This document shows, piece by piece, positions 6,190 through 6,535 of a DNA stretch of 10,163 nucleotides. How positions within the stretch are numbered: position 1 is the stretch's first letter; each line of letters begins with the position of its first letter. The position numbers were made by a program, and so were the translations under genes. This DNA comes from a virus (taxonomy: Duplodnaviria > Heunggongvirae > Uroviricota > Caudoviricetes), in the IMG/VR virus record IMGVR_UViG_2713896787_000009. One strand, 5' to 3'. Under the pieces are notes generated by a model. That model had not been told where the DNA came from. It did no database searches and worked only from the letters and a program-made list of their open reading frames with translations.

Positions 6190-6269
6190 GCCCCACCCGA
6201 CTATAAATCGAAGTGAGGCCCCTATATGCTCGTCACATATAGATTGCCTCTTACGGACCGAAAGGTCAA
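6190..6269 (-). ncRNA. Putative Sok-like antisense RNA region opposite the mok start (boundaries approximate)
   Basis: Position expected from hok/sok biology; minus-strand -35-like TTGACC (plus 6264-6269); no clean -10 or terminator identified. Confidence 0.25.
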
Positions 6270-6438
6270 GGAGAAGCAGGCTATGAAGCAGCAAAAGGCG
6301 ATGTTAATCGCCCTGATCGTCATCTGTTTAACCGTCATAGTGACGGCACTGGTAACGAGGAAAGACCTCTGCGAGGTACGANTCCGAACCGGCCAGACGG
6401 AGGTCGCTGTCTTCACAGCTTACGAACCTGAGGAGTAA
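6226..6438 (+). CDS. mok: Mok-like in-frame N-terminally extended reading frame of hok
   Basis: ATG 6226, in frame with hok; N-terminus MLVTYRLPLTDRKVKEKQA resembles chromosomal Mok peptides. Confidence 0.5.
   Translation: MLVTYRLPLTDRKVKEKQAMKQQKAMLIALIVICLTVIVTALVTRKDLCEVRXRTGQTEVAVFTAYEPEE
6283..6438 (+). CDS. hok: Hok/Gef-family type I toxin (51 aa; HokD/RelF-like)
   Basis: MKQQKAMLIALIVICLTVIVTALVTRKDLCEVR?RTGQTEVAVFTAYEPEE: single transmembrane helix plus conserved C-terminus; AAGGAG RBS at 6268-6273; codon 6381-6383 contains an ambiguous base (n at 6382). Confidence 0.9.
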   Translation: MKQQKAMLIALIVICLTVIVTALVTRKDLCEVRXRTGQTEVAVFTAYEPEE

Positions 6439-6506
6439 GAGACCAGGCGGGGGAGAAATCCCTCGCCACCTCTGATGTGTCAGGCATCCTCAACGCACCC
6501 GCACTT

Positions 6507-6535
6507 AACCCGCTTCGGCGGGTTTTTGTTTTTAT
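6507..6535 (+). terminator. Rho-independent terminator of the hok transcript
   Basis: AACCCGC-TTCG-GCGGGTT hairpin followed by TTTGTTTTTATTTTC. Confidence 0.75.

Follow-up and report, generated by a model that had tools for sequence, protein, structure and literature searches.

A very probably complete hok/mok/sok cassette of the HokD/HokW group in an Escherichia coli prophage, with the K-12 hokD arrangement as a derived form

Extent and elements of the cassette

The window analyzed here, a 10,163-nucleotide (nt) stretch of viral DNA (Caudoviricetes; IMG/VR record IMGVR_UViG_2713896787_000009), very probably carries at about positions 6101-6535 a complete type I toxin-antitoxin cassette (hok/mok/sok; HokD/HokW group) located in a prophage; relative to this cassette, the hokD arrangement of Escherichia coli K-12 is derived. 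The cassette is already known in kind and the allele has already been sequenced and annotated; there is little new biology in it, and its value lies mainly in a correction of annotation, as public records annotate only the small toxin open reading frame (ORF) and the hok/sok unit is about 440 bp long, from the hok promoter to the terminator. An earlier reading of the same DNA from its letters alone (hereafter the sequence-only reading) had placed the locus at 6226-6535. The 3′ end of this interval fits, but the cassette begins about 125 nt further 5′, and the hok promoter, the first 90 nt of the mRNA (6136-6225) and the 3′ part of Sok had been left out; the omitted part 5′ of 6226 carries the elements tac (translational activator) and ucb (upstream complementary box). 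When the cassette is followed across different genomic contexts, homology sets in near 6051 or 6094 and stops near 6526-6535, and since these edges recur we regard it as one unit, bounded by promoter and terminator and about 440-480 bp long. Its elements, by position in the window and strand, are the following.

6101-6129, plus strand: putative hok promoter, read from the sequence, at a position conserved in relatives
6136-6535, plus strand: predicted full-length hok mRNA (about 400 nt), with GGGUGCUUGAGG as its 5′ end and the T run of the terminator as its 3′ end, placed with Rfam RF01794 and the conserved 5′ end
6136-6147, plus strand: tac, which from folds and covariation pairs with fbi (fold-back inhibition element) as long as the mRNA is full-length and switches to ucb once the 3′ end has been trimmed
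6188-6196, plus strand: ucb, the anti-Shine-Dalgarno (anti-SD) sequence of mok, from folds and helix covariation
6215-6218, plus strand: mok SD sequence GAGG, 7 nt 5′ of the mok ATG, read from the sequence
6222-6242, plus strand: hairpin around the mok start (CUAUAUG-CUCGUCA-CAUAUAG), from folds; predicted target of the Sok 5′ tail
6226-6438, plus strand: mok frame of 70 codons, in the same register as hok and ending at a common stop
6246-6250, plus strand: dcb (downstream complementary box, GCCUC), pairing with the mok SD region 6215-6219 in the 3′-trimmed fold
6283-6438, plus strand: hok toxin gene, 51 codons plus TAA, with the SD sequence AGGAG at 6269-6273
6382, plus strand: ambiguous base n, opening codon 34 (NTC); relatives have A here, hence ATC and Ile34
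6446-6467, plus strand: 9-bp stem-loop in the 3′ untranslated region (3′ UTR), presumed 3′ end protector of the processed mRNA, a role taken from the plasmid R1 model
6488-6500, plus strand: fbi, CCUCAACGCACCC, complementary to tac with one bulged C
6507-6535, plus strand: intrinsic terminator of the hok mRNA, a stem-loop at 6507-6524 (7-bp stem) and a T run, from the terminator scan
6184-6269, minus strand: predicted Sok antisense RNA gene, from homology to annotated sokW and from its hairpin and U run

The toxin gene, the mok frame and the ambiguous base

The Hok product matched Pfam PF01848 HOK_GEF (E = 3.9e-22, 78 bits against a cutoff of 22) and PHROG 251, "MokW-like host killing" (E = 2.8e-33). 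Among NCBIfam models none naming HokD was above its cutoff, and the Hok subfamily model gave 48.5 bits against a cutoff of 73 bits. In a nucleotide alignment the hok coding sequence (CDS) equals K-12 hokD at all determined bases. At the protein level 50 of 50 determined residues are the same as in HokD WP_000813254.1, the accession found on a near-identical locus of E. coli E2865, and the whole protein would be equal to it if the n were A. The Pfam and PHROG matches, together with the identity to K-12 hokD, confirm what the sequence-only reading had already assigned, a HokD-type hok/mok type I toxin locus.

Position 6382 is the sole ambiguous base of the hok region. It had been described as part of a codon a?c with Ile expected, and from this it had been argued that the integrity of the toxin could not be confirmed. 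The expectation of Ile is supported by the relatives, all of which encode it (A is constant across the 92 close loci, within ATC in 90 and ATT in 2), but the codon is NTC, with the n as its first base. NTC can stand for Ile, Val, Leu or Phe and for no stop, so the worry about integrity was overstated; a nonsense mutation at 6382, the outcome feared in that reading, is excluded, and the flanks of the base align one to one with E2865 and K-12 in a frame that reaches the conserved stop. The single ambiguous base is what could speak for a hok gene broken at this point and a locus reduced to a pseudogene, an explanation that we consider hardly credible, given a codon that cannot be a stop, base-for-base collinearity with both relatives and the constant A in the close loci. 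As read from this sequence, the ambiguous base is no threat to the hok ORF.

The mok ATG lies 57 nt 5′ of the hok ATG and its frame is open up to the hok stop, that is, the frame 6226-6438 contains the hok frame 6283-6438, in agreement with the Mok-like in-frame extension reported earlier. The same 57-nt in-frame spacing is found in the annotated mokW of 933W and VT2-Sakai, in the annotated mok of Rac-SA53 and in most family loci, a minority having 58 nt and the +1 frame; the in-frame extension is therefore the norm and no oddity of this locus. In an IncFII plasmid copy mok is likewise 57 nt upstream and in frame. For plasmid R1 a spacing of 58 nt in the +1 frame was considered; the IncFII copy examined, with identical Hok, has 57 nt in frame, and we make no claim on R1. 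The motif GAGGC at the mok SD is invariant in 37 aligned family members. With mok present as an overlapping frame with its own SD, translation of hok is predicted to be coupled through mok. Two minus-strand ORFs, 6222-6416 and 5913-6173, were dismissed, as they lack family support and lie across conserved RNA and coding features.

At the Tyr47 codon of hok the motif TACG (6421-6424, plus strand) matches the site of A-to-I editing by TadA, which turns Tyr into Cys; such editing has been reported for hokC, hokD and hokE (PMC5630033). Given this motif, and by analogy, the full Hok toxin may need RNA editing for a disulfide bond with Cys30.

The hok mRNA and its alternative folds

In a covariance search with Rfam RF01794 ("sok") the plus strand at 6136-6285 scored 103.9 bits (gathering score 59); position 1 of the model falls at 6136 and the last three model positions fall on the hok AUG. 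For comparison, a family sample was assembled that combined 53 loci of species-representative genomes with 80 phage loci in which HokD is identical. The motif GGGTGCTTGAGGC at the 5′ end of the mRNA is conserved in 86 unique loci, and in these the stretch most complementary to that 5′ end is located 44-56 nt past the hok stop, with four degenerate or rearranged loci outside this range.

Folding was done with the n set to A. In the minimum free energy fold of 6136-6535, tac (6136-6147) pairs with fbi (6488-6500) through twelve base pairs, and ucb and the mok SD form a hairpin at 6190-6219. When the last ~57 nt are removed (6136-6478), the in silico fold changes: nucleotides 6136-6143 of tac pair with 6188-6194 of ucb, and the mok SD region 6215-6219 pairs with dcb at 6246-6250, where the motif GCCTCTT is invariant in the 37-member family alignment (A3). 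This switch after 3′ trimming matches the refolding model of plasmid R1 (summary in PMC9841398).

The pairings are supported by the way in which the sequences vary. In the 86 unique loci tac and fbi change together, GGGUG/CACCC becoming GGGCG/CGCCC and GAGG/CCUC becoming GAGA/UCUC. In addition, the predicted leader structure of the window, along with the first six tac-fbi pairs, was scored on 37 sequences from Escherichia, Kluyvera, Photorhabdus, Pantoea, Citrobacter and an IncFII plasmid. The proportion of structure cells that are paired was 88.3%, compared to 35-47% for slid controls, and the covariation score was 0.166, compared to 0.04-0.07, with 12 pairs altered on both sides. The fourth tac-fbi pair is UA in 23 of the sequences and CG in 11, and the ucb helix (helix 4) is 96% paired with 4 pairs altered on both sides. 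The leader of the IncFII copy (L139) aligns with the family and obeys the same pairings.

At the 3′ end, the 7-bp stem at 6507-6524 followed by a T run corresponds to the strong terminator noticed in the earlier reading. Two further Rfam matches on the hok 3′ UTR, isrK (24.9 bits) and rsmX (20.5 bits), were discarded as chance matches far below their gathering scores.

The putative hok promoter comprises a -35 box TTTGCT (6101-6106; alternatively TTGCTG, 6102-6107) and a -10 box TAGGAT (6124-6129) that ends 6 nt before the mRNA 5′ end. Its position is kept in 933W, Rac-SA53 and other loci, with a -10 that is there mostly TAGAAT. TAGGAT is the form of the window and of E2865; most relatives, including the paa-linked locus L023, have TAGAAT, and TAGGAT may correspond to a slightly weaker hok promoter.

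The Sok antisense gene and the question of activity

On the minus strand, alignment to the annotated sokW of 933W (L003, 1657→1587) and VT2-Sakai predicts G6234 as the +1 of Sok. The corresponding promoter has a -35 TTGACC (6269→6264), a 17-nt spacer and a -10 CAATCT (6246→6241). The predicted RNA starts with a single-stranded 5′ tail of 15 nt over the mok AUG, continues into a terminator hairpin (6219→6190) over the mok SD and ends in UUUUAU; it runs from 6234 to about 6184, and as its hairpin is 21 nt shorter than that of sokW, we set its length at about 50 nt. The whole predicted 51-nt RNA folds at -21 kcal/mol. The locus would therefore not lack an antisense gene, an absence that the sequence-only reading had named as telling against it, since a Sok gene is predicted at 6184-6269. 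The check proposed in that reading, a minus-strand search for a Sok promoter and terminator with a covariance model, gave a mixed answer: the hairpin, the U run, the TTGACC -35 and the sokW alignment were found, but the minus-strand RF01794 score was only 15 bits (at a permissive threshold) and no promoter came out of a consensus scan. The RF01794 hit lies on the plus-strand leader and therefore supports the locus and not the Sok transcript itself. The true Sok gene is on the strand opposite to this "sok antitoxin" match and covers about a third of it, and automated annotation based on RF01794 would give Sok the wrong strand. A Sok antisense gene is thus predicted on the minus strand, and its expression is the weakest link of the case.

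Several points weigh against a complete and working cassette. The consensus scan for promoters and terminators (5950-6660, promoter threshold 9/12) recovered the terminators of hok and paa, overlooked the Sok hairpin, which is bulged, and found neither the hok nor the sok promoter, both being below 9/12, so that the promoters were placed by homology. The Sok -10 CAATCT is without the usual first T and, with the -35, reaches only 7/12 of the consensus; the hok -10, TAGGAT, departs from the TAGAAT of most relatives; and the toxin gene contains an ambiguous base. Furthermore, chromosomal hok loci of K-12 and other strains have been reported to be unable to mediate post-segregational killing (PMC5630033; cited in bioRxiv 10.1101/2025.08.07.668861), and the latter also gives failure in rifampicin tests; an intact-looking locus can therefore be functionally quiet.

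These observations are what would be expected if the cassette were complete but a silent fossil like the chromosomal hok of K-12, with sok and hok barely transcribed or the mRNA never activated, and with neither stabilization nor killing. We consider this unlikely. All regulatory elements are intact and the paired ones covary across genera; the hok CDS is strongly conserved (column entropy 0.025 bit, see below), and the allele is present at ≥99% identity in 558 records. As regards the weak promoter boxes, hokC-type loci from several species of Escherichia conserve a -10 of the CAnTCT form, and the sokW promoter, experimentally functional, likewise has only 7/12 of the consensus.

A hypervariable patch at the predicted Sok target

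A 20-nt patch around the mok start (6220-6240), predicted to be the site read by the Sok 5′ tail, is hypervariable. Among 68 unique cassettes with the same HokD (loci L006-L092), column entropy was 0.75 bit in the patch, 0.025 bit in the hok CDS and about 0.1 bit in the rest of the leader, the patch being ~30 times more variable than the hok CDS. Different patches also occur on cassettes that reside together in one genome, as in E. coli ECMA0423 (L087, L088, L095) and Shigella flexneri SFBU1023 (L090, L092, L096). Tentatively, the patch may be a fast-diversifying specificity determinant and the allele of the window one of many orthogonal Sok-target "locks". Its variation would fit selection for Sok/target pairs that do not cross-react, and, if this were true, several prophage hok/sok cassettes could coexist without cross-protection.

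K-12 hokD as a 5′-truncated derivative

The sequence-only reading had compared the locus with the relB-relE-hokD arrangement of the K-12 Qin prophage and had concluded that it was reshuffled. The comparison points in the reverse direction. The match between K-12 and the window does not start until 6269, 14 nt 5′ of the hok ATG; upstream of that point K-12 has relE and is without the 133-nt structured leader (6136-6268) and the promoter. As homology begins only at 6269, K-12 hokD has lost promoter, leader, tac, ucb, the mok start and sok to relBE. The leader that is absent in K-12 is present in homologues from Photorhabdus, Kluyvera, Pantoea and plasmids, and given this conservation, which extends from plasmids to Photorhabdus, the window represents the complete form and K-12 the truncated derivative.

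What the two loci share is the hok CDS, a 3′ UTR that is 98% identical and includes fbi and the terminator, and, downstream, a rem-like gene, a DUF968 gene and the antiterminator Q; what K-12 lacks are the hok promoter, tac, ucb, mok and sok. In K-12, hokD is co-transcribed with relBE (PMC3598666). As regards membership in such a relBEF operon, with relB-relE upstream and co-transcribed, the gene upstream in the window is paa (5189-5947), which directly adjoins the cassette, and a tblastn search with RelE found no RelE/RelB similarity anywhere in the window. The position directly after the paa-like unit and the lack of a relBE partner had both been stated correctly.

The near identity or collinearity of the hok CDS, the 3′ UTR and the rem-like gene with K-12 Qin would also be found if the locus were a rearranged derivative of K-12 relB-relE-hokD that had lost relBE and moved beside paa, and the relE-hokD junction is fairly common, occurring in 1166 of 5426 complete E. 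coli genomes surveyed. Full-length modules (at least 80% of 6100-6560), however, were found in 3773 of these genomes. The paa-hok junction of the window was found in 577, including O157:H7 strains at 100% identity. Upstream of the 80 phage loci with identical HokD there was relBE in 2, paa in 4 and something else in 74. A derivation from K-12 is very improbable on these grounds and because a deletion derivative cannot regain the features of the ancestral family, namely the leader and promoter that are absent from K-12 and present both here and in distant homologues; the polarity is from the full-length form to K-12. The textbook K-12 hokD (relF) is accordingly a 5′-truncated remnant, unfit as the reference arrangement.

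A similar junction was seen in Kluyvera sp. CHPC 1.2972 (L110, ~600-1350), where relB-relE, 97-99% identical to K-12, stand directly before a different hok, 70% identical to HokD, with a junction within 2-3 nt of the K-12 relE-hokD junction. As the two junctions are in nearly the same place, the relBE-hok fusion is either older than the K-12 copy or recurrent.

Comparison with other known systems

The closest characterized system is the prophage-borne hokW-mokW-sokW of Sp5/VT2-Sakai and 933W, which shares with the window the promoter, tac, ucb, a 70-codon in-frame mok at 57 nt, dcb and fbi, the tac and fbi sequences being identical. Nucleotide identity is 85.3% over 411 nt and the Hok proteins share 47 of 51 residues. 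The two differ in the Sok 5′ tail, in the mok N-terminus and in the 3′ end past fbi, and Sok is annotated there with 71 nt versus about 50 nt here. The sok promoter reads TTGACC-17-CAATCT here and TTGCCT-17-TAACCT in hokW-sokW. The context is also different, since the 933W locus follows ead/Ea22-like early genes and precedes a YgiW/YdeI-like gene, whereas that of the window lies between paa and rem. HokW is toxic and is neutralized by sokW expressed from its own promoter, in a manner partly dependent on RNase III and Hfq; under mitomycin C, sokW falls and HokW rises, and phage release is halved when the locus is deleted (PMC8621323). Overexpressed HokD has been reported to be toxic as well.

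Compared to hok/sok (parB) of IncFII plasmids, the R1 type, all defining RNA elements are present in the same order. The toxin there (MKLPRSS...) bears only a distant similarity, the 5′ hairpin has a greater length, and the system is plasmid-borne, with a proven role in post-segregational killing. The hokC/mokC/sokC (gef) type has in common with the window a short leader of ~148-150 nt, a short Sok hairpin, the TTGACC -35 and the CAnTCT -10 with the T deleted. It differs in its toxin, which is ~80-82% identical to HokD, and in its location at a fixed chromosomal site and not in a prophage; the K-12 copy has been reported to be inactive.

Proposed mechanism

The mechanism suggested by anatomy and homology is that of canonical hok/sok. 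A weak promoter would give rise to a stable hok mRNA of about 400 nt. In the full-length molecule the 5′ tac (6136-6147) would pair with the 3′ fbi (6488-6500) and the mok SD would be locked by ucb; with both closed, the RNA would be neither translated nor bound by Sok. Slow 3′ trimming up to the stem-loop 6446-6467 would remove fbi, upon which tac would pair with ucb and the hairpin carrying the mok SD and AUG would be exposed. Ribosomes starting on mok (6226) could then run into hok and allow the synthesis of Hok. As long as the cassette is present, the short, unstable Sok of ~50 nt, transcribed on the minus strand from G6234, would pair with the mok start region, and the duplex would be destroyed. 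If the supply of Sok stopped, through loss of the prophage or through less sok transcription after induction, Hok would be made and the inner membrane depolarized.

By analogy with hokW-sokW, the role of the cassette is likely to be retention of the prophage and/or an aid to lysis on induction. Since it is co-oriented with the early-right operon in which it lies, read-through on induction could override Sok and time the production of Hok.

Neighboring genes and host prophage

The genes of the window follow each other on one strand in the order cI/cro, YdaT, O/P-like, paa, hok cassette, rem-like gene, DUF968, RusA, Q and tRNAs. The rem-like ORF (6656-6916) is 71% identical to K-12 Rem and belongs to PHROG 340, and a 92-amino-acid ORF (6986-7264) belongs to PHROG 1212, both families having no assigned function; the two ORFs stand in the same order in K-12 Qin. 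Positions 1-9899 of the window are 99.8% identical to a prophage in E. coli E2865, and within 6100-6560 the one position that differs from it is the ambiguous base. The same segment is 99.8% identical to PPompW prophages, in which the toxin is annotated "gef: phage maintenance protein". The cassette is best described as a moron between paa and the rem-like gene, in the early-right (replication-to-Q) region of a lambdoid, PPompW-type prophage from pathogenic E. coli.

A perfect 24-bp palindrome, CCGATATGGGAATTCCCATATCGG, is located at 6067-6090, 10 nt 5′ of the hok -35, and is kept with the hok cassette in contexts without paa (L015, L035, L042, L044, L060, L071 and L083). Possible functions are the binding of a protein or termination without a T run.

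At the far end of the window there is a tRNA array (9569-10163) with Met-CAU (9569-9644), Lys-UUU (9646-9721), Arg-UCU (9735-9809), Arg-UCG (10014-10090) and, where the window ends, a partial tRNA. The array is interrupted by a run of 50 N (9900-9949) that looks like a scaffold gap, and past this run the match to E2865 is only 87% and falls on the earlier tRNA stretch.

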